DNA of 37,918 bases from a virus (taxonomy: Duplodnaviria > Caudoviricetes), in the IMG/VR virus record IMGVR_UViG_3300049137_000066, positions 1 to 37,918 of that record. One strand, given 5' to 3'. Both the position numbers and the translations under genes were made by a program. The notes under the pieces are model-generated. The model made no database searches, was not told where the DNA came from, and worked only from the letters and a program-made list of their open reading frames with translations. How positions within the stretch are numbered: position 1 is the first letter of the stretch; each line of letters opens with the position of its first letter. Positions 4,967-33,465 of the stretch are shown one piece after another.

Positions 4967-4970
4967 GGGC

Positions 4971-5007: not shown

Positions 5008-5013
5008 ACACGG

Positions 5014-13970: not shown

Positions 13971-14563
13971 GAGGTCCCCTCTCCCGGGCACGGGGCGCAG
14001 CCCGGTAGGCCCACGGTGACGCGCTGCTCCACGCCCACGCAACCGCCTTCCGGCCCGACGATCCGTTGGGCCCCGATGACGAAGCGGCGCGGCCGGCGCG
14101 GGTTGGGGCCGATGCCGGGGAGGCAGCACCACAACGCCGAGTAGATGGTGGCGGCATCCACGTGGAGGACGCGGGCGGCCTCGGCCTGTTCCTCGCAGGT
14201 GGGCGGGCACCCGTCCTCCGTGGGCACCGGGGCGCAGCGCAGGAGGGTGACCACCAGCTCCACGGCGGTGAGCGGCGCGGGCATACAGCCACGGACGCCC
14301 TGGACGGTCCGGTCCTCGGAGGGGAAGGCCTGGCCGGCGGGGAAGATCCGGGCGACGCTCACTGAAAGTTGGCCCGGCTCGCCGTCGCCGCAGTCCTCGG
14401 GGCCGCACCCGTCCCACGCCACGGTCCCGGGGACGACACAGGCGCGGCACGGGCACCCACGGGCGTCCGGGACGCCGTCCGTCACGGCGGCGTCCAGGGC
14501 GGCGCACACGCAGCCCAGCACGGCCTCCGTGAGGTCGTGGACGGAGTACGGGGTCAACGGCAT
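13967..14563 (-). CDS. Putative tail terminator/neck protein
   Basis: Neck position; VAWDGC..GQLSVSVARIFP..LLRCAP..GPEGGCVG pattern resembles cluster-B-like actinophage neck genes (recalled, not searched). Confidence 0.6.
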   Translation of the reverse strand: MPLTPYSVHDLTEAVLGCVCAALDAAVTDGVPDARGCPCRACVVPGTVAWDGCGPEDCGDGEPGQLSVSVARIFPAGQAFPSEDRTVQGVRGCMPAPLTAVELVVTLLRCAPVPTEDGCPPTCEEQAEAARVLHVDAATIYSALWCCLPGIGPNPRRPRRFVIGAQRIVGPEGGCVGVEQRVTVGLPGCAPCPGEGTS

Positions 14564-14576
14564 GAGCGCGGCCTCC

Positions 14577-15395: not shown

Positions 15396-16102
15396 CGGCG
15401 TCCCCTCTCGTACGGGCCGGGCTCGCGGAAGCGGTCCCGGATGAACCGGCCCACGTGCCCGTGGGCGAAGCTGTCCGGCATGGTGGAGAGGAACCCGGCC
15501 TCCCGGTCGAACTCCGGCCGCCGGTGCAGGATCTTGACGTCCCTCATGCGCTCCCCGCCGATCCCCGCCAGGACCCCGAAGGCGGTCCGCTTGTGGAGGA
15601 CGTCCAGGTCGCGGCCCACCTCCAGCGCGGCGAGCATCCTCCGCTTCGTCACGGGGAGCGGTACGTGGAGCTCGTAGGAGACCGGGTCCGGGTGGCCGAG
15701 GGACACCAGGAGGTCCCGGGTCTCCCGCAGCCCTCGGAGGTAGGAGCCCGCCCCGCGTACGGCGTAGTACGCCTCCACCTCCCGGACCGGGCCCCGGTGG
15801 TAGACCGGCATGGCCCCCTCCACCGGCCTCATGACGAAGAAGTCGTCATTGGCCCACAGGAAGGTGTCCGTGATCTCCGGGTGTGCGCACGCCGCCCACA
15901 TGGCCGTGGTGGTGTTGGTGAACTTCGTCCGCCCGGCCTGGTGGATCGGGATGTGTTCCACGTCCCCCACCCACGGAGGCCGGCCGCCGATCAACCAGAC
16001 GCGCCGGTGCGGGAGGTTGGCCGCCCACGAGCGCAGCGCATACCGCAGCTGCTCGTTGGAGGCCCCCTCCCGCACCGGCACGACCAGGTCGAGCTCCGTC
16101 AT
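15392..16102 (-). CDS. Stealth-family-like glycosyl/hexose-phosphate transferase
   Basis: DLVVP..NEQLRYALRSW..P.W..FLWANDDFF resembles Stealth CR1/CR2 (ELRYSLRS...NDDFF); also YELHVP. Start ATG 16102. Confidence 0.7.
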   Translation of the reverse strand: MTELDLVVPVREGASNEQLRYALRSWAANLPHRRVWLIGGRPPWVGDVEHIPIHQAGRTKFTNTTTAMWAACAHPEITDTFLWANDDFFVMRPVEGAMPVYHRGPVREVEAYYAVRGAGSYLRGLRETRDLLVSLGHPDPVSYELHVPLPVTKRRMLAALEVGRDLDVLHKRTAFGVLAGIGGERMRDVKILHRRPEFDREAGFLSTMPDSFAHGHVGRFIRDRFREPGPYERGRR

Positions 16103-16104
16103 GG

Positions 16105-16806
16105 TCAGGACGCCTGGCAGAACTCGCCCGCAACCGGGAGGTACGTGGTGCTCGGCTCCGGCGGCGGGGTGGAGGTGAGGAAGGTCCGGCGGTGACAGGT
16201 CGGGCCCAGGGGCGTGAGCATCGGGCCCGGGGTGCCGGCGGCGTCCTGCGGCTGAACGTCGTACGGGCCGACGTCCCACTTCCCCCCGGCCTTCGTGGCG
16301 CCGGTGAGCTCGAGGTTCACGCCTTCCGCGCCGAGCTCCAGGTCCCCGATGATCCCGTTACTGAGCCAGGGCAGCAGGAAGTACACCCAGGAGCCTTCGG
16401 CGGTCTCGTCCTCACACACGTCCTCGCCCAGGACGTCCGTCCAGACTTCCAGCGCGAAGCCGGACTTGCAGGGGATCGAGCACGAGTCGAAGCCGATCGG
16501 CCGGCCCGCGTAGTCGAAGTACACCGGGCTGCCGGTCATGATCTCGATCAGCTCGGGACTGGCCTGGAAGAAGGTGAACGTGACGTCGAAGCCGTTGAGG
16601 GTCGGGCACCCCTTCTTGAAACCGCACTGCCTTCCGTTGGCGGCGGTGAAGGTGATGTCCTCGCCCTCCTCCACGTTGGCCTCCATGTTGACGGAGGCGA
16701 AGCAGTCGGTGACGTACGAGGAGTCCTCACCGCAGACGGGGCGGCCGCAGCCGTCCACCCGGGTAACCCGGACCGTCGCGGCATTGGAGATGAGCGGAGC
16801 TACCAC
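16105..16806 (-). CDS. Major tail protein
   Basis: RVTRVDGCGRP..EEGEDITFTAANGRQC..PELIEIMTG..FALEVW..YFLLPW..WDVGPYDV. Start revised to GTG 16806 after GGAGG. Confidence 0.8.
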   Translation of the reverse strand: MVAPLISNAATVRVTRVDGCGRPVCGEDSSYVTDCFASVNMEANVEEGEDITFTAANGRQCGFKKGCPTLNGFDVTFTFFQASPELIEIMTGSPVYFDYAGRPIGFDSCSIPCKSGFALEVWTDVLGEDVCEDETAEGSWVYFLLPWLSNGIIGDLELGAEGVNLELTGATKAGGKWDVGPYDVQPQDAAGTPGPMLTPLGPTCHRRTFLTSTPPPEPSTTYLPVAGEFCQAS

Positions 16807-16837
16807 GGAGGAGCCTCCAACAATGACCAGTTGGACG

Positions 16838-16911
16838 GCTCGGCCCACAACCAGCAGCGAGAGACGGTGCGTCTCGTGCCCGGCCCAGAACCAGCAGCTA
16901 CCAGGAGTCTA
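16838..16911 (-). promoter_or_regulatory. Tandem leader motifs (16838-16854 variant, 16878-16894) plus putative -10 TAGACT (16906-16911)
   Basis: gctcggcccacaaccag and gcccggcccagaaccag, separated by the small hairpin gagacg-gtg-cgtctc. Confidence 0.75.
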
Positions 16912-18997: not shown

Positions 18998-19306
18998 TCA
19001 GGTGGAGGCGGTGGCGGTGGCGTGGACGGTGACGCCGGACGCGGCGACGCCGGCCGCCAGGACGCCGATCCCCAGGAGGGTGACCCCGGCCGCCTGGAGG
19101 ACGGCCACGGTCGTCTGTCCGGCCGTGTTGGACGCGATCCGCGCCGAGCGGAAACCGGCCCCGGCCTCCACGGCCAGGGTGACCACCGGCGGGGACGTGA
19201 ACGCCCCGGCGGGCCAGGTGAACGTGGCGAGCCCGTTCCCGTCCGTGACGGCGGTCGCCCGCTCCTGCCGGCGGCCTGGTGCCTCGTAGTCCCCGCCGGT
19301 GCTCAT
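18998..19306 (-). CDS. Small beta protein, fibre-tip/H-lectin-like (102 aa)
   Basis: ATG 19306 overlaps the upstream TGA; ATFTWPAGAFTSPPVVTLAV resembles the 'F..P.V' fibre-tip pattern. Confidence 0.6.
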   Translation of the reverse strand: MSTGGDYEAPGRRQERATAVTDGNGLATFTWPAGAFTSPPVVTLAVEAGAGFRSARIASNTAGQTTVAVLQAAGVTLLGIGVLAAGVAASGVTVHATATAST

Positions 19307-19779
19307 CAGACCTCGCGAGTGGTCGTCACCAGGAGATCGGCTCCGGCCGCGCCAGTGAACACGTAGGCGTCCTGGAGGCTTTCCCCGGCGTCCCCGCCCC
19401 GGTCCACGCCCCACGTGAGGGAGGTACCGGCCGCCACCGGGACGGCCGCGCCGCCGCCGATGGCCACGGTCGGGGAGCCGGCGTACACGATCAGGGTCAC
19501 GGAACGGGCCCCGGCCGGGACCGTCACCGTGCCCGCGCCGGTCTGCCGCTGGATCGTGCCGTCCAGGACGGGGTTCGCCGGCGCCGCAGGTGCCTCGCAG
19601 CGCCGCACGGTCCCGGTAGTCACGTAGTCGGTCACGCCGTCCAGGGCGGTGTCCACGGTGACGGTCGCGCCGTCCTCCGTGGCGTAGCGGCGCAGGAAGG
19701 TCCCCGCGTCGTCGCACAGGACCTCGTACTCCTCGTCAGGCGCAGCCGGGGCCGCAACGCTGCCGTTCGTTCCGGACAT
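19306..19779 (-). CDS. Minimal paralog of the giant Cys-module proteins (one repeat + shared C-terminal domain)
   Basis: VLCDDAGTFLRRY..DTALDGVTDY..GTVRRC, then ARSVTL..PVAAGTSLTWGVD. GGAGG RBS. Confidence 0.8.
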   Translation of the reverse strand: MSGTNGSVAAPAAPDEEYEVLCDDAGTFLRRYATEDGATVTVDTALDGVTDYVTTGTVRRCEAPAAPANPVLDGTIQRQTGAGTVTVPAGARSVTLIVYAGSPTVAIGGGAAVPVAAGTSLTWGVDRGGDAGESLQDAYVFTGAAGADLLVTTTREV

Positions 19780-19800: not shown

Positions 19801-19899
19801 TTAGGCGATGCGCTGGTCTCGCGGGGTGGTGCGGCCGGCCGCGATCGTGGCGCCGGTGATGCGGGTTGCCTCCAAGCGGGTGCGCGGCGTGCCGGTCAT
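19801..19899 (-). pseudogene. 32-aa ORF, possible deletion remnant of a third MxGT-type gene
   Basis: MTGTPRTRLEATRITGATIAAGRTTPRDQRIA*; ATGA overlap with the upstream stop; fills the gap between its neighbours. Confidence 0.4.
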
Positions 19900-20381
19900 G
19901 AGGCCGTGTCCCCCGGGGGTCCGATCCAGTGGGCGGAGACGAAGGTCCGGCCGTCCCCGTTGCTGACCACCGAGGCGTTCCCAACGGGGCCGATCCGGTA
20001 GGCGGCGAGCTGAATGGTCTGCCCGGCCGTGAAGGAGTGGACGAACTGCCGCGCCCCGGTCGCCTGGACCTGGAACGCGGGAGCGGCGGCGGCGATGGAG
20101 ATGAACGCGGCCATCGCCTCCGAGCCGGGGAGAAGGGCGCCGTCCTTAAAGAGACCCACGGTCACGCCGAGGCCCTGCGCGGCGTTGGCCGGCAGGAGGG
20201 CGACGCCGCGGGCCTGGTAGCTGACCTCCCAGATGCCGGCGCGGGGGATCGTGAGGGCCGGGGCCTCCCCGATGACCTCCCACACCCGGTCTGCGCCCGC
20301 CAGGGCGCGGCTGAAGGTGAGGGTGCCGTTCTGCGCCCACGCCCCGTCCACGCCCCACAGGCCAGCGCTGGTGCCCGCCAT
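19896..20381 (-). CDS. C1q/BclA-CTD-like beta-sandwich protein
   Basis: Start ATG 20381 (MAGTSAG); LTIPRAGIWEVSYQARG..LFKDGALLPGSE..FTAGQTIQLAA. Confidence 0.65.
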   Translation of the reverse strand: MAGTSAGLWGVDGAWAQNGTLTFSRALAGADRVWEVIGEAPALTIPRAGIWEVSYQARGVALLPANAAQGLGVTVGLFKDGALLPGSEAMAAFISIAAAAPAFQVQATGARQFVHSFTAGQTIQLAAYRIGPVGNASVVSNGDGRTFVSAHWIGPPGDTAS

Positions 20382-20839
20382 CAGTCGCTCACCCGCTTGA
20401 AGCGGAAGCAGTGGGCCCACAGAACCCGGCCCGAAGGGGTGCCGGCGTCGGTCCGCCAGGACCCTTCCACCCGGAGCGTGGCCGGGCCGCCCACGCGGTA
20501 GAGCGCGCCCGCCGAGGCGTTGGCCTGGATGCCGTGGATGATCGCCTCCGCCGACTGGTCGGTAAGGAGGATGACGCGCCGGTCACTCAGGGGCACCCCG
20601 GCAGCGGCCGTGGTGTCGTAGATCCGAGCGTCGATGATCGCGTTCGTGATGCTGCCCGTCCCGGCGATCGACCCCTGCACGTCCGCGACCACCTCGTACA
20701 GCCCGGCCCCCGGAAGGGTCAGGACCGCGCCGGGGACGGGCGTCCACGTGCTCTCTGGAGCAGCGTCAAGGCTGACGACCCCACTGGCCTGCCCGCTCGG
20801 TACGGGCAGGCCACGGAGCCCGGCATCGGTCCCCGCCAT
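20381..20839 (-). CDS. C1q/BclA-CTD-like beta-sandwich protein, paralog of 19896..20381
   Basis: Start ATG 20839 (MAGTDAG); WTPVPGAVLTLPGAGLYEVVADVQG. Confidence 0.65.
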   Translation of the reverse strand: MAGTDAGLRGLPVPSGQASGVVSLDAAPESTWTPVPGAVLTLPGAGLYEVVADVQGSIAGTGSITNAIIDARIYDTTAAAGVPLSDRRVILLTDQSAEAIIHGIQANASAGALYRVGGPATLRVEGSWRTDAGTPSGRVLWAHCFRFKRVSD

Positions 20840-23800
20840 CAGCCGGCCACCGTCGCTTTCCAGGTCCAGTTGAGGAGGTAGGAGGCGGCGGCGGTCGCCC
20901 CGGCGAACGTGGCCACCGACAGGGAGGAGTCGTCCGTGTCGTTGGTGGACCAGGTGAGCGTGGCCCCGGCCGGGACGGGCTGTGCCGCCCCGTTGCCCAT
21001 GGTCACGTGGACCGTGTCGGCCAGGACGGCGAGGGACACGGACTGGAGGCCGGGGAACTCCGTCACGAGGGCCTGGACGACGGTCCCGGTCACGCGGCGG
21101 ATGCCGGTCTGGACGGGCTGGTCCGCCGGGTCCGGGGGAGCCGGCGTGCTCGCCGCGGCGGCGGCGCATGAGGTGACGGTCCCGGTCGGCTCGTAGGCCG
21201 CGCCGTCGACCGTGGTATCGAAGTAGGGCGCCGTCCCGGCCGCCGGGTCGGGGGTGAAGTGCCGCAGGAACGACGTGACGGCTCCCTCACCGCATCCGGC
21301 GATCGGCTCCGCGTCCTCCACCGTCACCGCGTACTGGTCCACGGTGAACGTCTTGTGGATGTTCGGCCCCTGGTAGACGCGCGCCCACCAGTACCAGGTG
21401 ATGTTCCCGGCGATCAGGTCCGCCCACGGGACGACCGCCTCCACCTCGAAGGTCTGCGCCGCGCCCGTGTTCGTGTTGGCGACGTTGGCGGTGTCCAGGA
21501 CGGTGGTCCCGTTGCGGATGGTGAGCCCGGCCTCGGGGCTGCCCACGTCGGTGGCGGCACCGGTGTTGGTGGCCCGCAGGGAGACCGTCACCCGGACGTC
21601 ACCCGGGGTGCCGCACGGCGTGGGCCCGGAGGAGGTGACCCGGCCGGAGATCGCGTTGATGCGGGAGCCGCCCGGGTCCGTTCCCCACGTCGGCACCATC
21701 ACGGACCCGCCAGAGCTGAAAGCGGGCGTCGGGTCCACCATGTATCCGGCGGTGGTGGAGCTGATCGCGGGCTCCGTGGAGGCCACCGGCGGCAGCACGG
21801 CTGTGCTGGTCGGGGTGTAGCTCTGCGCCTCGCCCTCGGTGACGTCGCACAGGAGGACCGTCTCCACGTCCTCACCGGTGCCGTCGCCTCCGCCGGTGCT
21901 GTTGCCCGTGCAGGCGGTGACCTCACCAGACGGCAGGTAGGTGTCACCGTCCAGGGTGGTGTCCGTGTGGGTCGCCGTCCCGTCCGCGTCGAAGGTGTAG
22001 CGCCGCAGGAACGGCACCACCTCCTCCGTGGTGACCGCCGGTACGCCCGGGCCGAGGAGGGAGACGTCATCGAGGAGGGCGTCAATGAAGTCCCCGCCGA
22101 CCAGGTCCGTGAACCGAACCGTCATGGTGGTGTCGGTGGCCACGATCGGCACGGGGCCGACCACGCCATCCGCCGGCCACAACGGGCCGCCGCTCACCGC
22201 CGCGGGGGTGACGGTCTCGGTGTGGAGGACCGCGCCGGACCCGTCCAGGACGTCCACCCGCACCTGTTGCGGGGTGTTCCCGCCCGTGCTCCAGATGCCG
22301 ATGCGGGCCGAGAGGTTGTAGGTGAGGCCGGGGGTGACGGTCGTTGTCTGCTCCGCCGTGCCCGCCGCACCGTTGTCCGCCGACAGGTCCAGGAAGCCAA
22401 CCGACCCGTCCGGGCTGCTGGACGGCACGTAGCGCGCGCCGCCGGTCAGTGCCCACCCGGAGGCATCCGTGGCAAAGTGCCCGTTGGTGATCCGCTCGGG
22501 TGTCTCCTCCGGGGTGGTGACCTCGGTGACGTCGCACAGGACCACCAGCTCCACGTCCGCCGGGGCGTCACCGTCCGGGCAGACGCCGAGGTGCGCGCCG
22601 CCGGGGATGGCCACGGGCCCGCCGGTGACGGCGTCCACGATGCGGGGCGCACCGGTGGCCGCGCCGGTGGCGTCGTAGACCTGCTCCGCGCGGACGGCCT
22701 GGAGGACGTTGCCGGTGGTGTTGTCCAAGACGCACAGCGGCCACGTCTCGACGTCCACCCCGGCCGCCTCACCACTCGGGCACGGCACCTGGACCCACCC
22801 GGCCGGGACGGCGGTCTGTTCGTCGCCGAACTCGTCCAGGTAGGTCGTCGTACCGTCCGGGCACAGGATGCGCGTCCACTGCACCAGGGACTCCACCGCG
22901 TAGGTGGCCACCACGTGGGCCAGTAGGCCCTCGGAAGAGTCGGACGGGGAGGTCTCCTGAATGTGGAGGGTGATCCGGTTCGTACCGGCCTGCGCCCCGG
23001 GGACGGTGGACGCCGGCAGCGTGTAGAGCGTCTGGTAGTCAGTCCCGACCGGTTGCCACGGCCCGGTGTTCAGCCGCCAGGCGACAAGGAGCTGGTCCGC
23101 GGCGAGCGCGGGCACCTCGATCTGGATACTCGCCGGGTCTGCGTCGGCCGGCAGGTCGAAGGTGGCCGAGGCGTACCAGTTGAACGGGTTCGCCGCCGAG
23201 AGGCCGGGCTGGACCGTGAGGAAGCCGGGGCCCTCGTTGGCGCCGACCGGGTTGCAGCGGGTCTGCACGAAGCCGTTGCAGTGCGCGCCGACCCAATGGG
23301 CCGTGCCCTCGTACCCGGTGGCCGCCGAGGACGGGTCGTTGGTCCAGGCCCCGTTCTTCGCGATCCGGTACATGTCCCACCAGGAGGCGGCGGGCGCGTT
23401 CGGGTCGGTCTGCCACTTCCAGTCCGCGTCCACCGTGTTGGCGGTGCTGCCAGGCGTGCCGGGCGTGCCCTGGTTGGAGATGAACTCCACCCGGCCGTTC
23501 GGCTGGAAGCACACCGGGGAGACGTCGCACGGCTGCGGCTCGGTGCAGATGCCGACCGTTCCGGCGCCCGGGGCGAAGAGGGTGGTGCCGTCCAGGAGGG
23601 TGTCCGTGCGGGCGGTCATGACGCCCGTGGAGGCGTTGTAGACGAGGTGCCGCAGGAACGGCGTCACGGTGCCGTCCGCCGTCGCCGTGTGGCACAGGAG
23701 CAGCGGCTCCGCGTCGGCTCCCTGGGGCTGCTCCTGCGACGGCTCACACACCCCGACCACGGCCGGCGGCACATAGGCCGTGGTGCCGTCCAGGAGGGTG

Positions 23801-26800
23801 TCCGTGATGCCGGTGACCAGGCCCTCACAGTCACGGCAGATACGGCGGAGGAACTGCACGCTCGCGGTGACCTGGAGCGCCCCCACCCACGCCGTGCGGA
23901 ACGCCCCGCTGATGGCCCTGCGGGGGCCGAGGAAACGCGTCGTCAGCGTGGACACCGGGCCCGGGGTGCGGAACCGGGCGGACACGGCACGGGTGGGGTT
24001 GGCCATGTTGGCGCCGGTCGGGTCGGCGGCCTGCGTGACGTTCACGCACACCAGGCCGGTGACCGGGTTGTAGACGAACCCGGCGGGGAGGCTGACGACC
24101 TCCAGCCCGGCCGGGAGCTGCATGCAGTTGTCGTCCGGCTCCGGTGTGGGGCTGAAGTAGCCCATGTAAACGGAGAACTCGACGACCGCCGGCCGGGTGA
24201 AGGTGAACGTGTACGCGGGGATGTTGGCGTTGGGGAAGATCGCGGTGTTGCCCCACCAGGCGCCGTCAGCGTTGCTGAGGTTGCTCGGGGTGGCGGAGGC
24301 GTTGCCCTTCACCTGCCATGTCACGCCGTTGGAGAGCGTCCCCGAGGACACGCCCTGGCCGGTGATGGTGGCGGAGTCGTCCGCGCACAGCACCAGCGTT
24401 TCGCAGTTCTGGCAGCCCTGCGGCGGGCAGACGCCCACGGTGCCGGCCAGGTCCGGGGTGTAGGCGGTGCCGTCCAGGAGGTAGTCCGAGTGGCCGACGA
24501 CCGCGCCGAGCTCATCCCGCCGGTAGTCCCGCAGGAACTCCGTCACGGTGCCGTCCGCCGCCGTGTGGCACAGGATCACGGCATCCTGCTGGGGCTGCTC
24601 GACGCCGGCCGGGCAGGTAGTGACGGTGCCCTGCGGGGTGTAGGTGGTGCCGGTGACAGCGTCCACCAGGCGCACGGAGGAGATCGCGCCCGTGTCGTCG
24701 TAGCTGTACTCCACCAGGACCAGCCCGGCGACCGTGCCGTCCGCCAGGACGTCACAGAAGGTGCCGCTCACCTGGACGGAGCGGGAGTCCCCACAGGCGA
24801 CGGTCCCGGCCGGGGGCGCGCCCGCGCTGTAGGCGCCGGTGGTGAGGTTGAGCCATCCCTCCGACGTGACGATGCCCGCGCAGTCACGGACCACGGTGAC
24901 CGCGATCGGTGTCCCGTCCGCCAGGCACAGGCCGACCGTGGCGGTCGGCTCGGTCGGAGAGGCGCAGTCCCGCTGTGCCTGGGGGCACGGGACGACCACG
25001 GCCTGAGTCAGGTCTACGTCCTGGCCGCTTACCTGGTCGCGCCATGTCGTCTCGCCGGTCTCGCAGTCGCGGAGCCCGTACGCCGTCCGGATCTCACCGG
25101 CCCCGGTGACGACACCGGTCGCGGTCACGTTGCAGAACCGCTCACCGTTGTCGGGGGCCGGGTCGGCGAAGCCCTGGGTGCCGAACAGCATCGTCACCGG
25201 AGACGAGAACGACAGCCGGAAATGCAGGGTGCCGCCCATCCGCAGGTACTGCGTACCGGTGGTGAGTGCCTGCTCGGTGAAGACCTCCAGAGTGACCGTG
25301 ACGCCGTTGAACACTGCGGTGCCCGTGTACGGGGCCGGGATACCCGCGTTGGGAACCGAGGGGATCGGCGGGCTGAACGTGCTCCAGTCGATGAACCCGC
25401 CGAGCTCCGGAGCCGAGATCTCGACGTTTGACGCGGTGCCGGTGTTCGAGCTGTAGGTGCCCTCCCACGCGGTGATCGGGTCGTTGTACTGGATGAACGG
25501 GAAGTCGCCGTCCATGGCGTCGAGCCCGACCAGGCAACCGGGGTGGTTGGGGTCGGCGTTGTTGAACTTATGCAGCGTGAATGACGGGTCTTGGGTGGCC
25601 GGCTCCTGGTAGCACAGCGTCCCGGTGAACTGGTCGCAGCCTGCGGCGGGCGGGCAGTCCACGAGCGTCGGGGCGGTGACCTCCTCGCCAGTCTCAACGT
25701 CCACGTACTGGACGGCCTGGTCCTCACACCCGGCGCAGCGCACCACCGCGGCGGCGCGCACCGTGCCGGTGCCGTCGTCGTAGCAGACCTGGCCGAGGAC
25801 GAGCGGCGCGGCCGTCTCCTCACCGCTCGGGCCGCAGACACCCACCTCGCCCTGGACGGCGTAGGTGGTGGTCCCGTCCAGGGTGGTGTCCGTGACGGTG
25901 GCGCCGCCGGTGCAGGAGCGGCAGAGGTGCCGGAGGAACGGGGTGGCCGCGCTGGCGCAGCCGGTGACGGGAGCGGGGCCGGCGGTGAGGGTGCCGCCGC
26001 TCACGGTCCACGTCTTGGGCTGGTCCCCGGCCGGTGTCCCGTTCAGCGGGTCCGCGCCGGTCTCCAGGTTGAACTCCACCGTGACGTCCCCGGCCAGGAG
26101 GGACGCCACCGGGACGGGGCCGGTGATGGTTGCGGTCCTGGTGTCCCCGGCCGGGAAGAACACGCCGGAGCCCGCGCCGAACGGGTCGGCCGTGACCATG
26201 GTGGAGCCGTCCCACAGGGACAGGCGGCCGTAGTAGTCCCACGCTCCGCCGGGGCCGTCGTTGCGGTAGGTGACGGTCGCCGTGACGTCCAGCGTTCCGG
26301 CCGGGTCCAGGTCGCCGCACTGGACGTCGCCCACGCCGAGGATCACGCCGTAGTGGGTGTGCGCCCCGGCGGCCGAGCCATCGGGTGCCGCGCCGGGGAC
26401 GCTCACGGTCTGGCCGGACCAGATCGCCGTGGCGTCCGCGTCCGTGCCGCGCCGCGGGGCGCCGGAAATGACCTGGTCGTTACGGACCTGGTAGCCGGTG
26501 CCGGTGAGCGTCACCGCCGAGGTGGTGACGGGGACGGTGTCGCAGAGGAGGACGGCCTCACAGCTGCACGACTCCGGAGTCGGGCACGGCTGGAGCTCCC
26601 CGGCCGGCGTGTAGTCAACGCCGGTGACCGGGTCCACGACCCGCGTCCCCACCCGCTCACTGGTGGTGGCGTCGTAGACCGGCTCCACCAGGACGGTGGC
26701 GGCCACGGTCCCGTCCGGGAGGACGTCGCACAGGAGCACCGGCTCCACGTCCACACGGGGCACGGCCAGCGCGCTGGTGATGACGGGCCCCTGCCCGCAG

Positions 26801-26811
26801 CATCCACTCAT
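20839..26811 (-). CDS. Giant (1990 aa) Cys-module protein with six inserted passenger domains; putative head fibre/decoration
   Basis: Intact ORF with high GC3; recurring LCD...FLR...DxxLDG..Y...G.V..C modules; Thr/Gly/Pro-rich; no signal peptide; lies between capsid and tail genes. Confidence 0.8.
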   Translation of the reverse strand: MSGCCGQGPVITSALAVPRVDVEPVLLCDVLPDGTVAATVLVEPVYDATTSERVGTRVVDPVTGVDYTPAGELQPCPTPESCSCEAVLLCDTVPVTTSAVTLTGTGYQVRNDQVISGAPRRGTDADATAIWSGQTVSVPGAAPDGSAAGAHTHYGVILGVGDVQCGDLDPAGTLDVTATVTYRNDGPGGAWDYYGRLSLWDGSTMVTADPFGAGSGVFFPAGDTRTATITGPVPVASLLAGDVTVEFNLETGADPLNGTPAGDQPKTWTVSGGTLTAGPAPVTGCASAATPFLRHLCRSCTGGATVTDTTLDGTTTYAVQGEVGVCGPSGEETAAPLVLGQVCYDDGTGTVRAAAVVRCAGCEDQAVQYVDVETGEEVTAPTLVDCPPAAGCDQFTGTLCYQEPATQDPSFTLHKFNNADPNHPGCLVGLDAMDGDFPFIQYNDPITAWEGTYSSNTGTASNVEISAPELGGFIDWSTFSPPIPSVPNAGIPAPYTGTAVFNGVTVTLEVFTEQALTTGTQYLRMGGTLHFRLSFSSPVTMLFGTQGFADPAPDNGERFCNVTATGVVTGAGEIRTAYGLRDCETGETTWRDQVSGQDVDLTQAVVVPCPQAQRDCASPTEPTATVGLCLADGTPIAVTVVRDCAGIVTSEGWLNLTTGAYSAGAPPAGTVACGDSRSVQVSGTFCDVLADGTVAGLVLVEYSYDDTGAISSVRLVDAVTGTTYTPQGTVTTCPAGVEQPQQDAVILCHTAADGTVTEFLRDYRRDELGAVVGHSDYLLDGTAYTPDLAGTVGVCPPQGCQNCETLVLCADDSATITGQGVSSGTLSNGVTWQVKGNASATPSNLSNADGAWWGNTAIFPNANIPAYTFTFTRPAVVEFSVYMGYFSPTPEPDDNCMQLPAGLEVVSLPAGFVYNPVTGLVCVNVTQAADPTGANMANPTRAVSARFRTPGPVSTLTTRFLGPRRAISGAFRTAWVGALQVTASVQFLRRICRDCEGLVTGITDTLLDGTTAYVPPAVVGVCEPSQEQPQGADAEPLLLCHTATADGTVTPFLRHLVYNASTGVMTARTDTLLDGTTLFAPGAGTVGICTEPQPCDVSPVCFQPNGRVEFISNQGTPGTPGSTANTVDADWKWQTDPNAPAASWWDMYRIAKNGAWTNDPSSAATGYEGTAHWVGAHCNGFVQTRCNPVGANEGPGFLTVQPGLSAANPFNWYASATFDLPADADPASIQIEVPALAADQLLVAWRLNTGPWQPVGTDYQTLYTLPASTVPGAQAGTNRITLHIQETSPSDSSEGLLAHVVATYAVESLVQWTRILCPDGTTTYLDEFGDEQTAVPAGWVQVPCPSGEAAGVDVETWPLCVLDNTTGNVLQAVRAEQVYDATGAATGAPRIVDAVTGGPVAIPGGAHLGVCPDGDAPADVELVVLCDVTEVTTPEETPERITNGHFATDASGWALTGGARYVPSSSPDGSVGFLDLSADNGAAGTAEQTTTVTPGLTYNLSARIGIWSTGGNTPQQVRVDVLDGSGAVLHTETVTPAAVSGGPLWPADGVVGPVPIVATDTTMTVRFTDLVGGDFIDALLDDVSLLGPGVPAVTTEEVVPFLRRYTFDADGTATHTDTTLDGDTYLPSGEVTACTGNSTGGGDGTGEDVETVLLCDVTEGEAQSYTPTSTAVLPPVASTEPAISSTTAGYMVDPTPAFSSGGSVMVPTWGTDPGGSRINAISGRVTSSGPTPCGTPGDVRVTVSLRATNTGAATDVGSPEAGLTIRNGTTVLDTANVANTNTGAAQTFEVEAVVPWADLIAGNITWYWWARVYQGPNIHKTFTVDQYAVTVEDAEPIAGCGEGAVTSFLRHFTPDPAAGTAPYFDTTVDGAAYEPTGTVTSCAAAAASTPAPPDPADQPVQTGIRRVTGTVVQALVTEFPGLQSVSLAVLADTVHVTMGNGAAQPVPAGATLTWSTNDTDDSSLSVATFAGATAAASYLLNWTWKATVAG

Positions 26812-26814
26812 GGG

Positions 26815-29800
26815 TCAACTCCCAGTCGTAAAGGCGACGGTGACGATCCCGTCCACCGCCGTGACGGATAGCGGGCCGACCAGGGCCGCGTCTTGTTCCT
26901 TGTCGGTGGACCAGGTCACGGACTCACCCCGGAAGAGCGTGGAGGCGCCCTCCACGGTGGTGATCTGGCCCGTGCCGGTGTGGGCGGTGAACGTGGCGGA
27001 GCGCAGCGCCACGACCGTGGAGGCGTCCCACGTCCCGCCCACGGGGAGCTGGACGCGGTGCGCCTGGACCGTGACGGGGAGCGGCGCCCCCGCCTCGACG
27101 GTGGCGCAGTCCACGGGCGATACCGGCGCGTAGGGCTGCGTCAGGTCCTCGGTGTAGGTGCCCACGCTGGTGAGGACTCCGGCGCAGTCCACGGCCAGGA
27201 GCTCGACGTACTCCACGTCCGCGATGCCGTCGCCGTCCGTGTCGTCGCACCGGCAGGCGGAGAGGACGGTGTGGGCCGGGCACGGCTCCTCCGCCGGCGC
27301 GCACTGGCCCACCTCGCCGGTGACGTCGTACGGGTCGCCGTCCAGGGTGGTGTCCGCCGTGGTGAGGACGTCCCCGGTCTCCGCGTCCACGGTGAGGGTG
27401 CGGAGGAACTGGACCGGGCCCGTGGCGGTGGTGTCGCAGAGCAGGAGCGTGCTGGTGCCCGGAGACGGCGGGGCAACCGTCGAGCCGCCGCCGTCGCCGG
27501 ACGTGCACTGGCCCACCTCGCCCTCCACGACGTACGGCGTGGAGCCGTCCAGGGCGAAGTCCTCGGCGGAGGTGAGGCCGCCGTCGCAGTCGAAGACCAT
27601 GCGCCGCAGGAACGGGCTCGCCGTGACGGTGAGGACGGAGGTCCGCAGCTCAATCGGCATCACGAACAGATCGCGATCATTGATCGCGCCGCCGGTGGTC
27701 AGGTCGGTCCAGCGGATCGTCACCGTGCCGGTGGCCGGCGCGATGAACGAGAGCGGAGGCTCCTCGGCGAGGACGCCGCCGGGGAACACGCTGGAGCCGT
27801 TGGAGGTGTTCTGGGTCCTGGTGGCGAGCACGGTGGTGCCGTCCAGGATCTCCAGCAGATAAACGGCGTCGTTGGCGGCCGGGTTGGAGCCTCCCGCGCC
27901 GATCCACGCCGTGGCGAACCGGTAGTCGTAGAGGACCGTCGCCAGGAGCCCGCCCACGGTGAGCTCGGCCACGCCGGTGGCGGGCTGGTTGGCCTGCGCA
28001 AACCAGAGCGTGGTGCCCTGGTTCCCGGTCACGACGTTCCCGGTGAGGGTGAAGTCCCGCGCCGGGGTGGGGATGGGGGCCTGCGGGTCGTACGTGAGGT
28101 CACAGAGCTGGACGAGCTCGGTGTCTCCGCACGGCGGGACGGTCGTCCCGCTGCTCGCCGGGGCGCACTGGCCGATGGCGCCGGTCGGGGCGTACGCGGT
28201 GCCGTCCGGGAGGGTGTAGGTGACCGACTCCACCGCGCCGGTCTCGCAGTCGGTGACCACGTTCGCGAAGACCTGCGCCGCACACCCGGCCTGGTCGTAG
28301 GCCACGGTCGTGGTGAACGCGGAGAGCTCCCACCCGGTCCGCCTCGGGGGCGGGCAAGTGGCGCCGCTGTCGTCGTAGGCGTCGAACGCGGCCAGGACGG
28401 CGATGTTCCCGGCGGCCAGGTCGGCGGCCGGCACATCGGCCTCGGCGGTCAGGGTTCCTGACCAGCCGGCAGGAGTGTCGAGCGGGGCCAGGGCCAGGGC
28501 CACCCGGTTGGCCTCGCCGCTGCCGTTGTAGATCCCGATGAACCCGGTGTTGCGGCAGCCGTTGTCCGGGCCGAGCTGGGTCACGTTGACCTGGACCGTC
28601 ACGTGGGCGGTGCCGGTGTCGCAGGCCGGCCGCGGGGCCTGGATGGTGGCGGCTGCGGTGCGGACGGTGCCGCCCGTGCCTGGCTGCGGGCCGGTAGCGT
28701 CCGGGAGGGTGAGCGTGCCGCCGTCCCAGAGCGCCTGTGCTCCGGGCGTGGGCACGCCCGTGGTGTACGGGTAGTACGGCGCTCCGCTGGTGTCCGTGAG
28801 GGTGGCGGCCGGGGTGCCGTCCTGGGGGAGGTCGCACACAAGGAGCGTGGAGGTGTTGCGGCACGGTGGGGCCGGGCAGACGCCGAGGTGCGCCCCGCCG
28901 GGGACCGCGACGGGCGCGCCGGTGACGGCGTCCACGAACCGGTTCCCCACCGCCAGGCCGGCGGCGTCGTAGACGACCTCCCGGCGGATCTCCTGGAGGA
29001 CGTCGCCGGTGGCGTTGTCGATGACGCACAGGCCGTAGGACTCCACGTCCACGGGCGGGGGCGTCGGGGCCGGCTGCTCCGGCTGGCAGACGCCCACCGT
29101 GCCGGTGACCGCGTAGGTGCCGCCGTCCAGGGTGTAGTCCGTGTGCCCGGTGATGAGGCCGGCCGCGTCGCGCCGGTAGTCCCGCACGAACGCCGTGGTG
29201 GTGCCGTCCGCCTGGACGTCGCACAGGACCACGGAGTCCTGTTCCGGGAGCTGGTCCCCGCCGCCGGGGCACTGCCGGAGGACGCCCTGGAGGGTGTACG
29301 GGTCGCCGGTGGCCGGGTTGAGGAGCTGGACGCTCGCCAGGGAGCCGTCCGGGGCGTAGGCGTACTCGACGAGGACCAGGCCGAGGACGTCCCCGGTGGC
29401 CGGGTCGGTGTCGCAGAGGATGCCGGTGAGCTCGAACGCGGAGGCGTCCCCGCACGGCCGGGCCCCGGCCGGGGGCGCGCCCTCGCTGTAGGTGCCGGTA
29501 AGGAGCTGGACCCACCCCTGGCGGGTCACCGCGCCGTCACAGTCCCGGGTGAGGAGGACGGCGATCGGTGTCCCGTCCGCGAGGCAGAGGCCCACGGTGG
29601 CCACGGGTGCGGCGTCACAGCCCGTGGAGCACGTACGGACCGGGCCGGTGACGATGTGCGGCGTCGCGCCGTCCAGGGCGTAGTCCAGGAACGTGGCCAC
29701 GCCCTGGAGCCACGTGTACCGGCGCAGGAACGGGCCGGAGTCGTCGCAGAGCTGGAGGGTTTCCGTCTCCTGGCTCCCCCACTCGCACTCCACCGGGGAG

Positions 29801-30216
29801 ACGGGTACGTAGGGGGTGGAGGGGTCGCCCTGGTAGGTGAGGACCAGGGAGGTGGTGCCGTCCGCGCGGACGCACCAGAGCTCGGAGTACGTGGCGTCCG
29901 CCGCGCCGTCCCCGTCCGTGTCGTCACAGAGGGTCCGGCAGACGGTCTCCACACAGCCGGGGGTCTCGCACGGGCCGGCGTCGGCCGGCGCGGCGCCGGG
30001 GGTGAAGACGCCGGTTGCGGGGTCAATCCAGCCGGTGACCTCCGGCGGGGCGGCATCGTCGCCGCAGTCGGCGGCCGGGGAGCTCACCACCAGGAGGATG
30101 GTGGTCCCGTCCTCCCGACAGAGGGGCGTGGTGGTGATGGCCGGGGAGTAACAGGCGGCGGGGTCGCCCGGCGTGCCGCCGCCGTCCGGGCCGCACGGGA
30201 TTGGCTGTACAGGCAA
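26815..30216 (-). CDS. Large (1133 aa) Cys-module protein with two inserted passenger domains; paralog of the 1990-aa protein
   Basis: Shares ATVGLCLADGTPIAV..RDC, LVLVEY.Y, RDYRRD and VDAVTG.PVA.PGGAHLGVCP modules and the C-terminal domain. Confidence 0.8.
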   Translation of the reverse strand: MPVQPIPCGPDGGGTPGDPAACYSPAITTTPLCREDGTTILLVVSSPAADCGDDAAPPEVTGWIDPATGVFTPGAAPADAGPCETPGCVETVCRTLCDDTDGDGAADATYSELWCVRADGTTSLVLTYQGDPSTPYVPVSPVECEWGSQETETLQLCDDSGPFLRRYTWLQGVATFLDYALDGATPHIVTGPVRTCSTGCDAAPVATVGLCLADGTPIAVLLTRDCDGAVTRQGWVQLLTGTYSEGAPPAGARPCGDASAFELTGILCDTDPATGDVLGLVLVEYAYAPDGSLASVQLLNPATGDPYTLQGVLRQCPGGGDQLPEQDSVVLCDVQADGTTTAFVRDYRRDAAGLITGHTDYTLDGGTYAVTGTVGVCQPEQPAPTPPPVDVESYGLCVIDNATGDVLQEIRREVVYDAAGLAVGNRFVDAVTGAPVAVPGGAHLGVCPAPPCRNTSTLLVCDLPQDGTPAATLTDTSGAPYYPYTTGVPTPGAQALWDGGTLTLPDATGPQPGTGGTVRTAAATIQAPRPACDTGTAHVTVQVNVTQLGPDNGCRNTGFIGIYNGSGEANRVALALAPLDTPAGWSGTLTAEADVPAADLAAGNIAVLAAFDAYDDSGATCPPPRRTGWELSAFTTTVAYDQAGCAAQVFANVVTDCETGAVESVTYTLPDGTAYAPTGAIGQCAPASSGTTVPPCGDTELVQLCDLTYDPQAPIPTPARDFTLTGNVVTGNQGTTLWFAQANQPATGVAELTVGGLLATVLYDYRFATAWIGAGGSNPAANDAVYLLEILDGTTVLATRTQNTSNGSSVFPGGVLAEEPPLSFIAPATGTVTIRWTDLTTGGAINDRDLFVMPIELRTSVLTVTASPFLRRMVFDCDGGLTSAEDFALDGSTPYVVEGEVGQCTSGDGGGSTVAPPSPGTSTLLLCDTTATGPVQFLRTLTVDAETGDVLTTADTTLDGDPYDVTGEVGQCAPAEEPCPAHTVLSACRCDDTDGDGIADVEYVELLAVDCAGVLTSVGTYTEDLTQPYAPVSPVDCATVEAGAPLPVTVQAHRVQLPVGGTWDASTVVALRSATFTAHTGTGQITTVEGASTLFRGESVTWSTDKEQDAALVGPLSVTAVDGIVTVAFTTGS

Positions 30217-30221
30217 GGGGA

Positions 30222-30842
30222 CTACCTCCCGTGGACCATGCGGCGGTGGGTGTCCCGGCCGCGCTCGGTTTCGAACGACTTCGGGCAGCGGTCACAGGGG
30301 TGCGGCTTGTCGGCGGGTGGGTCGCTTCGGTCGCTGTCCCCCGGCTTGTCTCCCGCCGTGTCCCCCGGCTTGTCCCCCGTGTCCCCGCTGCTCACGGCGG
30401 GTGCGGCCGGGACGGTGTCCTCCCGGTCCCCGGCCGTGTCCCCGACGTTGTCCCCCGTGTCCCCGGCCCTGTCCCCGAGGGGGACAACGGTCTCCGGGCC
30501 GTCCTCACCCACGATGACGAGGCCGCCGGGTTCGAACGGCTCGGCGTCCTCCAGCGGCGCGAACACGGGCGGCGCCAGGGGGAAGCCGTCCACGGTGGCC
30601 ACGCCCAGGAGCTCGGGCGCACCGGCCGGGGCCGCCTCCGTGGCCTCCTCGGCGGGCTCGTACGGGTAGCCGTTGACGGTGGCGCCCTGGAGCAGCGCCT
30701 CCGGGATCTCCGCGAAGAGGTGCGGCGGGACGCCGAACGCCTCGGCGGAGACGGTGCGCAGCTTCGGGGTCTGCGCGACCGCCCACCGTGCGAACGCGCG
30801 CCGCACCGGGCCGGCGGGCTGGACGGTGAGGAGATCGGCCAT
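30222..30842 (-). CDS. 206-aa protein with GD-rich linker and C-terminal C2H2 zinc finger
   Basis: Start ATG 30842 overlaps the pentamer stop; ends HPCDRCPKSFETERGRDTHRRMVH (C-x2-C-x3-F-x8-H-x4-H). Confidence 0.75.
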   Translation of the reverse strand: MADLLTVQPAGPVRRAFARWAVAQTPKLRTVSAEAFGVPPHLFAEIPEALLQGATVNGYPYEPAEEATEAAPAGAPELLGVATVDGFPLAPPVFAPLEDAEPFEPGGLVIVGEDGPETVVPLGDRAGDTGDNVGDTAGDREDTVPAAPAVSSGDTGDKPGDTAGDKPGDSDRSDPPADKPHPCDRCPKSFETERGRDTHRRMVHGR

Positions 30843-31687
30843 CAGTCGCACGCCCTCACCTGGACGGCGCACACCGTGCACGTGGTGCCCACGACGTACG
30901 TGCGCTCCAGGAGCACGGACCGCAGGTTGGTGCGGATGTTCACGGAGGCGGAGCGGTCGGGGATGACGTCCAGCGGCCCGCGGCGGATGTGGACGGGGCC
31001 GGTGACGTACATCCATGCCGTGCCGGGCTCGGCGGGGATGCCGCCCGGGCCCGTGTTCATGGCCGAGTACCCGGCGCCGATGACGGCGCAGTTACCGGCC
31101 AGGGTCCGCAGACTCCCGGTGGCGGGGTCCTCCCGCAGGACGTTGCAGCAGCCCAGGAGTGCGGCCAGGCCCGCCGGGACGTGGAGGACGCCCTGGCCGC
31201 CGTAGGACTCCGCCAGGCAGCCCTCCAGCGCCGCTACGCCCTGCGCCGGGGAGACCGGGCCCTCCGGCGGGGTCAGGTCCACCACGTCCGTGGTGAGGCG
31301 GGTGTCCCACCAGGCGGCTTCCAGGCCGTGTTGTTCCCCGAGGTCCATCGCCGCGCGGGCGTGCTCCACGGCCTCCTCGAAGGTCCAGCCCATGGTGGAG
31401 CACTCCATGCCGGAGTACAGGGTGATGGGCGTCGCGTGCTCGAACTCCGGGCGGCAGAACGTCTTTTCCACGGGCTCGCCGGGCGACTCCTCGCCGGGGG
31501 ACTCCGCCTCCGTCAGGCACGGGTCGTGCCACTGCTGGACGGGGCAGCAGCCGAGGGCCATCCACTCCACACCCATGAGCTCGTGGACGTCCTCCACGTC
31601 CCGCACGTTGGTGCACGCGTTGAGGATGCCGTGGGGCAGGGGGGTGCCCGCGATGGGCTCGACTCGTTTCCGCATGGCTGCGGGCAT
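30842..31687 (-). CDS. Second capsid protein (major capsid pentamer-type)
   Basis: Follows the major capsid gene; PITLYSG.EC..LGEQHGLE..GVAALE..GVLHVP..GAGY..WMYVTGPV.IRRG..ERTYVV resembles the pentamer protein of cluster-B-type actinophages (recalled, not searched). Confidence 0.7.
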   Translation of the reverse strand: MPAAMRKRVEPIAGTPLPHGILNACTNVRDVEDVHELMGVEWMALGCCPVQQWHDPCLTEAESPGEESPGEPVEKTFCRPEFEHATPITLYSGMECSTMGWTFEEAVEHARAAMDLGEQHGLEAAWWDTRLTTDVVDLTPPEGPVSPAQGVAALEGCLAESYGGQGVLHVPAGLAALLGCCNVLREDPATGSLRTLAGNCAVIGAGYSAMNTGPGGIPAEPGTAWMYVTGPVHIRRGPLDVIPDRSASVNIRTNLRSVLLERTYVVGTTCTVCAVQVRACD

Positions 31688-31767: not shown

Positions 31768-33465
31768 TCAGGAGGTGGTGCCGGCGGCGCACAGCATCTC
31801 GAGCTGCGCACCGGTCGCGCCGTCCGGGCAGACCGGGACGGTGACCAGGCGGGTGTCCACGCTGCGGTCCACGAGCGCGCTGCATTCCTCGGCGAAGATT
31901 GCAGTGAAATCGTTAAATCGGAACTTCGTACTGTCGTGGATCACGCCCAGGTTGACCTCCTCGCCGCGCCCGATGACCAGCGAACCGGCCGGGTACATGA
32001 GGAATTTGATCGTGCTGGGGAACGCCTGCGCCGGAGTGGCGCCGCCGATCTCGTCCGGCACCGCCGGGTTGAGGCCGCGCGCGAACTGGACGCGGACGCC
32101 CAGCTTCGTGAACGTGTCCTGGATGCAGTTGGGGTCCAGGTCGCAGATGTTGACGCCGTTCTGGCGGGCCAGGTCCGCGAGGAAGAGCTGACGGGACCAG
32201 TACGGGAACACGACCTCCAGGGCCGTGGACTCGCACAGGCTGTGCCGCTCGATGACGTCGGCGCTCTGGAGGGCGACCGCCGCGAACACGGCGGAGAGCG
32301 CGCCGAAGGACGGGTCCATGACCACGGGCGTGGCCGTGTTGAGTGCCTGCTGGAACAGCTGCTGCTTCACGCGGATCTCGTGCGCCACCATGGCGTTGCG
32401 CAGGTACCAGCTCACGAGCTCCGGGAAGTGGCGCTGCGTGAGGATGCCGGCCTCCAGGCAGACGCCGATGGCGTCACACCGGACCTCGACCGGGTCGGGG
32501 CACGGGATGCGGAAGCAGGGCTTTTCCGCGCCGGAGATGTCGTCCGCCTCGGTGTGGACCCACGTCATGGCGGAGACGTCCAGGGACAGAGGCTTGTAGT
32601 AGCGCAGGCCGCCGCGGGCGAGCTGGATCTCCGGGGCGTCCCACAGGAGGTCCGGGCACGCCGTGTCCGTGAGCTCGTAGACGGTCTCCGAGGGCGCGCA
32701 CCAGCCGCCGGACGCCACCAGGTCCCCGCCCTCCAGACGCCGCTGGTTGGAGGCGTGGAGGGAGACCGTGGTGCCCTCCGGCGCGGAGCTGGAGTCCGTG
32801 ACGATGAGGTCCTGCGAGTACGGGTGCCGGTAGCTGATGACCTGTCCGACGCCGCCGCCGGCCGTTTTGAGGGCGTTGGCGCGGCTGATGATGCCGGCGG
32901 TGATGTCTCCGAAGTCCAGGGGCGCGCCCGGGGTGTAGCCGGGGACGTCCACCGCTGCGGTGATGCTGGTCGTCGGTGCCGGGGCCTCGGGCAGGACGCG
33001 CGGCTGGACGCGGCGCACGGCGGAGAGGTTGAGCGCGGGACGGGCGATCGCGGATGCGGTCGCCGCGGGGGCGGCCGGGGTCTCCGGAGCGGCCGGAGCA
33101 GCCGGAGCGGCGGGGGCTGGCTCGGCGGAGGCGGCGGCCTCCTCACCGCCCTCCGGGGCCGGGTCGGCGGCCGGGGCGGCCTCGTCGCCGCGCACCCGGG
33201 CGGCCATGGCCTCGATCTCGGCGGCGGCGGCCTCGGCGGCCTCACGGCGGGAGCGCTGCTCCGACCGGATCGCCTCGGAGCCGGCGGCCAGGGCGCGCAT
33301 CTGCGCCAGGGACTCGTCCGTGATCGCGTCCTGTGCGGACAGGCCCGCGAAGGCGACGGAAGAGACTTGGAGGGCTTCCGCCAGGTCCTCGTCCGGGAGG
33401 GACGCGAGGTACGCGGAGTCAGAGAGCTGGTTGAGGTCCTGCGGGAGCTCGTACGAGTCGGCCAT
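31768..33465 (-). CDS. Major capsid protein (hexamer-type) with N-terminal scaffold-like region
   Basis: Coiled-coil and Ala/Pro N-terminus, then LVASGGWCAPSETVYEL..PEIQLARGGL..KPCFRIPCP..GIL.QRHFPEL. Start revised to ATG 33465. Confidence 0.88.
   Translation of the reverse strand: MADSYELPQDLNQLSDSAYLASLPDEDLAEALQVSSVAFAGLSAQDAITDESLAQMRALAAGSEAIRSEQRSRREAAEAAAAEIEAMAARVRGDEAAPAADPAPEGGEEAAASAEPAPAAPAAPAAPETPAAPAATASAIARPALNLSAVRRVQPRVLPEAPAPTTSITAAVDVPGYTPGAPLDFGDITAGIISRANALKTAGGGVGQVISYRHPYSQDLIVTDSSSAPEGTTVSLHASNQRRLEGGDLVASGGWCAPSETVYELTDTACPDLLWDAPEIQLARGGLRYYKPLSLDVSAMTWVHTEADDISGAEKPCFRIPCPDPVEVRCDAIGVCLEAGILTQRHFPELVSWYLRNAMVAHEIRVKQQLFQQALNTATPVVMDPSFGALSAVFAAVALQSADVIERHSLCESTALEVVFPYWSRQLFLADLARQNGVNICDLDPNCIQDTFTKLGVRVQFARGLNPAVPDEIGGATPAQAFPSTIKFLMYPAGSLVIGRGEEVNLGVIHDSTKFRFNDFTAIFAEECSALVDRSVDTRLVTVPVCPDGATGAQLEMLCAAGTTS

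Follow-up and report, generated by a model that had tools for sequence, protein, structure and literature searches.

We describe a family of phage proteins, two of them giant proteins of a soil phage of Streptomyces type, in which whole domains are plugged, one after another, into equivalent loops of a small repeated module. The window, by which we mean the whole 37,918-nucleotide stretch of DNA that was analysed, is a linear 37.9-kb virus record (IMG/VR IMGVR_UViG_3300049137_000066; Caudoviricetes) with a completeness of about 41% and a GC content of 72%. Its matches come mainly from soil metagenomes, and no RNA dataset is among those listed as containing the region. Three minus-strand genes, here termed A, B and C, encode copies of a cysteine-bracketed module of about 55 residues, predicted to be all-beta, which is either empty or loaded with a passenger domain. 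We hypothesize that A, B and C are optional, capsid-anchored adhesin fibres; this is the single best reading, and we give it a probability of about 0.5. The architecture itself is real, well supported and apparently undescribed, and it would serve a known kind of purpose, in a function that we infer.

20839..26811, minus strand: protein A, 1990 residues; N-terminal Cys-Cys, 13 modules (6 loaded), predicted C-terminal jelly-roll domain; PHROG 18824, E 3.3e-179
26815..30216, minus strand: protein B, 1133 residues; 11 modules (2 loaded), predicted C-terminal jelly-roll domain; PHROG 18824, E 3.8e-238
19306..19779, minus strand: protein C, 157 residues; one empty module, then a C-terminal jelly roll in a model with a predicted local distance difference test score (pLDDT) of 88

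The open reading frames (ORFs) of A and B are genuine genes by frame composition (GC at third codon positions, 0.94), and B starts at a TTG codon preceded by a GGAGG site. An assembly artefact is ruled out because the DNA copies of the repeat have diverged (mostly 60-90% alike in the 20 largest of 41 families) and short contigs from a second study match pieces of the stretch letter for letter, no listed piece covering the whole. PHROG 18824, of unknown function, is the only PHROG matched by A, B and C (for C, E 6.4e-10), with profile matches over multiple stretches, and none of the three matches a Pfam or NCBIfam family above cut-off. Cysteine makes up 2.7% of A and 3.6% of B, and threonine plus serine 18%. 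The distance from opening to closing cysteine is 39-51 residues in the 16 empty modules of A and B and 199-243 residues in the 8 loaded ones, whose inserts are 158-204 residues each. A preliminary description of this DNA, made from the sequence alone, had proposed a cysteine-bracketed repeat with eight passengers at the equivalent loop. Indeed, 8 of the 24 modules are loaded, all eight of its insert coordinates were reproduced within about 10 nucleotides, and the three empty modules that it quoted are present in the translations. To this we add the third module gene, C, and a C-terminal domain of about 90 residues common to all three proteins.

A search with the core repeat region returned 411 proteins, of which we used the best 120; the named ones among these are all hypothetical proteins, from Streptomyces, Streptosporangium, Nonomuraea and kin. 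Together with the module ORFs of the fetched loci, they form a parsed set of 358 proteins, or 272 after removal of near-duplicates, with 2423 modules, 525 of them loaded. The parser profiles were built from the family itself, and one module of A that the parser overlooked was added by hand. Across the 2151 inner modules of the 272 proteins, the spacing between the previous closing cysteine and the second half of the module is bimodal: 10-50 residues in 1615 and more than 120 in 525, with 5 modules at 50-120 residues and 6 overlapping. Among the main-type modules that score for it, the first-half motif follows closely on the closing cysteine of the previous module in 347 of 376 loaded modules (median 16 residues) and in 843 of 1028 empty ones (median 15). 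It lies directly ahead of the second half in 7 of the 376 loaded modules, the figure for random passenger windows being 2 of 1880. Of 302 loaded main-type modules, 297 have both an extra upstream cysteine and an extra second-strand cysteine, 4 have neither and 1 has only one of the two; of 782 empty modules, 106 have both and 536 neither. The numbers of extra cysteines are equal on the two sides of the insert in 314 of 347 loaded modules (one each in 205, two each in 105, none in 4), and the invariant staple has two cysteines only.

Since the first half adjoins the previous module and the second cysteine set co-occurs across the insert, the sequences indicate that the passengers are inserted in a loop of the module, as the preliminary description had claimed; simple concatenation of repeats and extra domains is ruled out by the position of the first-half motif and by the co-occurrence of the cysteines. 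AlphaFold models of B (pLDDT 72, predicted template modelling score 0.33, 28 sequences) and C (pLDDT 88, 0.62) consist of all-beta beads joined by low-confidence linkers, and the order of strands does not differ between empty and loaded modules. The comparison of empty with loaded modules that had been suggested as a check thus yields an equal strand pattern in the model of B and fold matches that end at the passenger borders; that the two halves re-pair around the insert is something we infer, though strongly.

The eight passengers, all on the minus strand, are as follows.

25945..26532, minus strand: passenger A1 (family 1); in orthologs this module holds a CBM4/9-like passenger or none
25093..25602, minus strand: passenger A2 (family 8), no significant PDB or Pfam match
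23860..24375, minus strand: passenger A3 (family 2), no significant PDB or Pfam match
22888..23499, minus strand: passenger A4 (family 3), no significant PDB or Pfam match
22018..22524, minus strand: passenger A5 (family 9), CBM4/9-like; Pfam CBM_4_9 E 0.02, CBM22 E 0.03
21277..21837, minus strand: passenger A6 (family-1-like); z 6.6 to A1 and 6.0 to B1
28279..28824, minus strand: passenger B1 (family 1, the most frequent kind); its predicted fold is a galactose-binding-like jelly roll, with Z up to 8.4 over 466-643 of the model
27619..28092, minus strand: passenger B2 (family 4); its predicted fold is a CBM4/22/27-like jelly roll, with Z up to 8.7; homologous to A5

The inserts number eight, but they are of only about five kinds, which rules out eight unrelated passengers: A1, A6 and B1 are mutually alike (shuffle z 6.0-7.0; A6 is a singleton in the final clustering and fell in family 1 in an earlier one), and A5 and B2 are homologous, joining families 9 and 4 (HHalign 96.6%). 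Homology between A2 and A3 (HHalign 14%) and between families 1 and 3 (0.2%) is unsupported. Fold matches on the model of B are confined to residues 465-647 and 706-863, that is, to the two inserts, and they are mostly carbohydrate-binding jelly rolls: CBM27, CBM22, CBM4, CBM16 and the second carbohydrate-binding module (CBM2) of the phage J-1 Dit protein (Z 7-8.7). The CBM27 match has Z 8.4 (root mean square deviation 4.2, 140 residues aligned), an arabinanase CBM Z 8.7 (3.5, 117 aligned) and J-1 Dit CBM2 Z 7.6 against B1. By predicted fold, B1 and B2 are thus jelly rolls of the 130-180 residues typical of a CBM, and a family 9 homolog in locus L012 matches Pfam CBM_4_9 above cut-off (E 9.8e-6). 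Of the lectin or adhesin character proposed earlier, a lectin-like fold is supported by the model for B1 and B2 and by the CBM_4_9 match for family 9. PDB profile searches with families 1, 2, 3, 4 and 8 gave nothing significant, the Foldseek matches of the complete B model were all unspecific, to large beta proteins, and a Pfam scan of 27 divergent homologs found no above-cut-off match for any passenger; a legume-lectin match in the divergent homolog P0233 (E 7e-4, below cut-off) is a lead. Passengers of about 350 residues (family 13), in L007:9288-12797, L089 and L092, apparently have a second domain nested within the first.

The module profile matches 744 clusters at 50% identity, of which the best 150 were examined. 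In the 272 proteins we distinguish 18 passenger clusters, 13 of them with at least 3 members, and the 206 proteins longer than 450 residues show 99 passenger orders. In 132 further proteins from the module-profile search, 345 of 386 long gaps match known passenger clusters; the repertoire is larger than that clustered, because the other 41 do not.

The module-profile search and the comparison of orthologs, which the preliminary description had proposed, show that passenger content at the loop differs. At the second module of A, with collinear flanks, the window has a family-1 passenger; orthologs in L043, L052, L061 and L087 have a CBM4/9-like passenger in a module whose second half is 76-82% identical to the window's, and those in L077 and L062 are empty (second half 66-71% identical). 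The CBM4/9-like passengers of L043, L052, L087 and L061 are 21-22% identical to A1 of the window and 77-80% (L061, 51%) to its A5. The array is thus exchangeable in that one orthologous module can be empty, family 1 or CBM4/9-like, but movement is mostly of whole modules: in 319 of 347 cases the passenger family agrees with that of the nearest scaffold, against about 105 expected by chance, which rules out free swapping as the main mode. Among 50 full-cassette loci there are 42 passenger sets, with 0-8 passengers per locus. Passenger-set similarity hardly follows capsid identity (Spearman rho 0.09), and in the closest capsid pairs (93-99% identity) the sets differ in 11 of 12.

The genes lie in a minus-strand siphophage structural operon that runs from a MuF/protease fusion through the major capsid protein, two conserved small genes, B, A, and two genes here termed x1 and x2, and continues with C, a glycosyltransferase, the major tail protein, the tape measure, minor tail proteins and an endolysin. 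The genes that bound the cassette are the following.

31768..33465, minus strand: major capsid (hexamer) protein; identity 89% with Streptomyces phage TurkishDelight, 53-58% with cluster BG phages
30842..31687, minus strand: Cys-rich conserved protein behind the capsid gene, which we take to be the capsid pentamer protein; PHROG 779
30222..30845, minus strand: small conserved protein directly ahead of the cassette, present in cassette-less phages too
16105..16848, minus strand: major tail protein, the downstream limit of the cassette region; PHROG 792

In 89 of 92 module-bearing loci (several of them the same prophage counted twice) the cassette is directly behind the capsid genes, with the major tail gene downstream, which agrees with the position between capsid and tail noted earlier. 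The order B-type, A-type, C-type is found in 39 of the 92 loci, many of the rest being truncated at the flank limit. When 47 loci were found through the capsid gene instead, the cassette was present in 40 and absent in 4, and 3 were too short, giving 40 of 44 scorable loci; among named phages it is absent from TurkishDelight and TP1604 and present in the cultured Mischief19 and Xkcd426. The cassette is optional and dispensable, and is encoded with the head genes.

The proteins also share their C-terminal domain, in which 225 of 238 module ORFs finish. Its lines, and those of the two neighbouring genes, are these.

20842..21123, minus strand: C-terminal domain of A, about 90 residues, common to A, B and C
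26818..27078, minus strand: C-terminal domain of B, about 90 residues, predicted jelly roll
20381..20839, minus strand: x1, 152 residues; start overlapping the stop codon of A; a relative of x2 and a candidate knob protein
19896..20381, minus strand: x2, 161 residues; candidate knob protein; PHROG 25393

The fold is predicted to be a small jelly roll. Its matches are led by cupins and include Ena subunits (Ena3A, Ena2A and Ena1B, Z 7.2-7.4), the turret proteins of STIV (A223, Z 7.2) and HFTV1 (Z 6.5), and XepA/YomS. Ena1B is also the top PDB sequence match (E 0.053), and the Pfam Enas profile hits one of the 42 C-type members (E 0.21) and none of the 31 of A-type. PDB profile searches with the A-type C-terminal domain and with x1 and x2 gave nothing significant. 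Foldseek with C found no PDB match at E<=0.001, and its viral matches are uncharacterised, except for the one at rank 1, a 354-residue entry of the size found in Xkcd426. In the ESM Atlas the C-terminal domain matches uncharacterised viral clusters, with a PRD1 spike as a lead at 0.85; the repeat region gave no usable match there. Homologs of x2 weakly match the BclA C-terminal (C1q/TNF-like) domain in 9 of 36 aligned members (best E 0.0017), and the window's own x2 has no such match. A module protein in L084:15169-17214 carries an RCC1-like beta-propeller in place of the usual C-terminal domain, and one in L037:7354-9096 ends, by eye, in an x1-like domain; the latter is a possible fusion linking knob genes to chains.

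From these observations we read A, B and C as beads on a string, each bead a beta module of about 55 residues whose first hairpin loop can take a whole extra domain. The two halves of the module would pair again to form a single small sheet that a Cys-Cys staple closes, with a second staple when loaded. The fibres would dock on the capsid through the C-terminal jelly roll or the N-terminal cysteine peptide, with x1 and x2 as putative knob proteins, and would display several predicted sugar-binding domains that may hold the phage on host or soil glycans. Recombination between scaffold DNA of 70-90% identity would shuffle whole modules often and passengers sometimes, so that the adhesin set could vary faster than the capsid changes. 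Virion association is likely; 'capsid fibre' and 'disulfide-stapled' go a step beyond the sequences, in which gene position and cysteine content favour a virion part. In their cysteine content A and B resemble core structural proteins: in TurkishDelight, cysteine makes up 2.0% in 14 structural genes (up to 8%) against 0.86% in 13 others. Core structural proteins of the window, at 7354-8796, 13967-15395, 16105-16848 and 30842-31687 (all minus strand), contain 4-8% cysteine, which suggests a virion stabilised by disulfides or metal. A bolder version, which we hold to be doubtful though worth stating, is that phage heads carry a plug-in display platform, in which three paralogous jelly-roll anchors would co-assemble on the capsid and trail chains of double-stapled sockets, at whose edges recombination would swap sugar-binding domains.

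A number of observations weigh against the capsid-fibre proposal. Gene position is weak evidence, because a glycosyltransferase sits in the same interval. In Saccharomonospora phage PIS 136 (L009) and in L083 (9977-12919) the module gene lies behind the tape-measure and minor tail genes, each time followed by an x1/x2-like gene, and the PIS 136 module protein lacks the C-terminal domain. Some structural proteins are poor in cysteine (tape measure 0%, portal 0.9%), so the cysteine content only suggests a virion role. The C-terminal matches, all below Z 8 and led by cupins, indicate a common fold only. The passenger Z scores are likewise middling and point to a common fold rather than a function; they take in non-lectins such as the cyclase 6a8x (Z 8.4), and A2, A3 and A4 have no significant PDB or Pfam match. 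Loaded modules, to judge from the sequences, mostly move as units with their passengers, a swap at the loop being the minority mode. Finally, about a third of the second staples are four-cysteine sets, potential zinc sites.

The same adhesin chains could instead sit on the tail tube, neck or tail tip, which we consider unlikely. The relocated genes of PIS 136 and L083 point that way, the major tail gene comes immediately after the usual slot as well, and carbohydrate modules on siphophage tail, neck and Dit proteins are well known (accessible text of PMC6669499). On the other side stand the 89 of 92 loci with the cassette directly behind the capsid genes, and the separate tail-fibre-like genes of the window at 2559-5751. 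The nature of the staples is a question that can be combined with any reading. Phages assemble in a reducing cytoplasm, and in 105 of 347 loaded modules the second staple has two cysteines on each side; the staples might thus in part be zinc sites rather than disulfides. Against this, the invariant staple has two cysteines only and 205 of the 347 second staples are single pairs, and we think zinc improbable. Disulfide networks are also described for phage 7-7-1 capsids in the accessible text of PMC12796354.

More unlikely still is a structural coat or shield, in which the chains would cross-link over the capsid, possibly glycosylated by the adjacent glycosyltransferase, and protect it in soil, the passengers being spacers. 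The cysteine-rich core capsid and tail proteins, the free N-terminal cysteines of A and B, the 18% threonine plus serine and the glycosyltransferase present in many loci are consistent with it. Yet all 54 cysteines of A are pairable within the chain except the N-terminal two (manual count), the glycosyltransferase also occurs without a cassette (TurkishDelight, L139), and passenger content differs between near-identical capsids, which fits binding specificity rather than armour. A similarly small chance is left to a role outside the virion, with the proteins released at lysis or made by the lysogen as decoys, aggregation factors or self-assembling filaments. The cassette is dispensable, and the Ena matches would suit such filaments; the Ena link is weak, as the Pfam counts given above indicate, and the genes are coupled stop to start inside a structural operon with no export signal. 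In A and B no signal peptide is apparent (no K/R among the first 10 residues), nor is a positively charged N-terminus or a hydrophobic segment of anchor length, although no dedicated predictor was run. For the same reasons, neither signal peptide nor cell-wall anchor being apparent and the genes lying in a prophage structural operon, the proteins do not resemble bacterial fibrillar adhesins.

Relatives of A and B are already present in PHROG 18824: Streptomyces phage Mischief19 gp18, Xkcd426 gp17 and gp18, and PIS 136 gp2 are of the same family, and in Mischief19 and Xkcd426 the cassette occupies the same genomic slot as in the window. The Xkcd426 insertion was recorded as five orphams (PMC5511901), and in that paper and in the records the members are 'hypothetical', with no function, repeat or insertion architecture given. 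Xkcd426 gp17 and gp18 (L008:7778-10889) appear to be a single gene interrupted by a frame change, gp18 of Mischief19 being one frame of 1169 residues; the split is either a sequencing error or real. The claim that the architecture was undescribed holds for the open-access literature, in which we found no description of this repeat or insertion (subscription papers and bioRxiv supplements were outside the scope); the accessible text of PMC11536984 has nothing on the cassette.

Insertion of a carbohydrate-binding module in a loop of a phage structural domain is established, as the accessible text of PMC9437275 sets out. In evolved Dit proteins, and in the neck, tail and Tal proteins of Gram-positive siphophages that bear CBMs, a CBM sits in a loop, like the passengers of A and B. 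Those systems have one or two modules in an essential tail protein, whereas the present family has a dedicated repeat that provides as many as about 20 equivalent sites in one chain; its genes are dispensable and its passengers form at least 13 clusters. Neither A nor B matches a Dit or tail family, and what follows the tape measure is another gene (7354-8796). There are precedents for a capsid-borne carbohydrate module in HFTV1 (accessible text of 10.1101/2024.12.09.627619) and for a disulfide-linked capsid with fibres in phage 7-7-1 (PMC12796354, likewise). In these texts the HFTV1 gp30/gp31 and 7-7-1 capsid fibres are capsid appendages proposed for first, reversible host contact, like the role proposed for A and B. 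The HFTV1 turret has a small jelly-roll base resembling the C-terminal domain (Z 6.5), a likeness that shows in the predicted fold, and the disulfide-rich capsid of 7-7-1 resembles the cysteine-rich core structural proteins here. The accessible descriptions of turrets and head fibres include no plug-in repeat, unlike A and B. Rosebush gp17-type decoration proteins of actinobacteriophages share a related capsid type and a slot behind the capsid genes (accessible text of PMC7150772); by that description they are compact hexameric decorations, set apart from A, B and C in size and repeat structure. Bacillus Ena subunits and BclA C-terminal knobs are small jelly rolls (Z 7.2-7.4) with N-terminal cysteines, as in the cassette with its BclA_C-like neighbour genes. 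Ena subunits are single domains of about 115 residues without a repeat chain, unlike A and B, and the sequence support is marginal.

Several neighbouring genes are of interest in their own right. The 30222-30845 (minus strand) product has a C-terminal low-complexity linker and a Cys2-His2-like motif and is kept in cassette-less relatives. A two-domain GT4 glycosyltransferase (16941-18977, minus strand) and a Stealth-like protein (15392-16108, minus strand) flank the major tail gene; virion glycosylation is possible, and both are present in TurkishDelight, a phage without the cassette. The 541-residue tail-fibre-like protein at 2559-4184 (minus strand) has its own, different Cys- and Thr/Val-rich repeats and zero PHROG or NCBIfam matches. 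The MuF/protease fusion (33881-37237, minus strand) further includes a stretch (291-475) that resembles an RNA ligase, and a helix-turn-helix. In L140 and L141, metagenome contigs of 54-55% GC, a divergent module protein (P0222) lies two genes behind a Cys-rich 466-residue protein, itself preceded by a scaffold-like gene; PHROG and PDB searches of this neighbourhood gave no match, and the group may be an unrelated capsid cluster.

The family is large (the 744 clusters above), wholly unannotated, present in most relatives of the phage group and variable between near-identical capsids. A repeat of about 55 residues that tolerates insertions of 140-350 residues at a fixed loop is a rare natural case of serial domain insertion, and a possible scaffold for multivalent display. 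If the family is indeed a virion adhesin array, it would explain a conspicuous unknown gene block in Streptomyces phages and give a handle on how soil phages find filamentous hosts. Were the display platform real, it would span hundreds of actinomycete and some unrelated phages and would let adhesins vary in another way than through diversity-generating retroelements or invertible tail-fibre switches.

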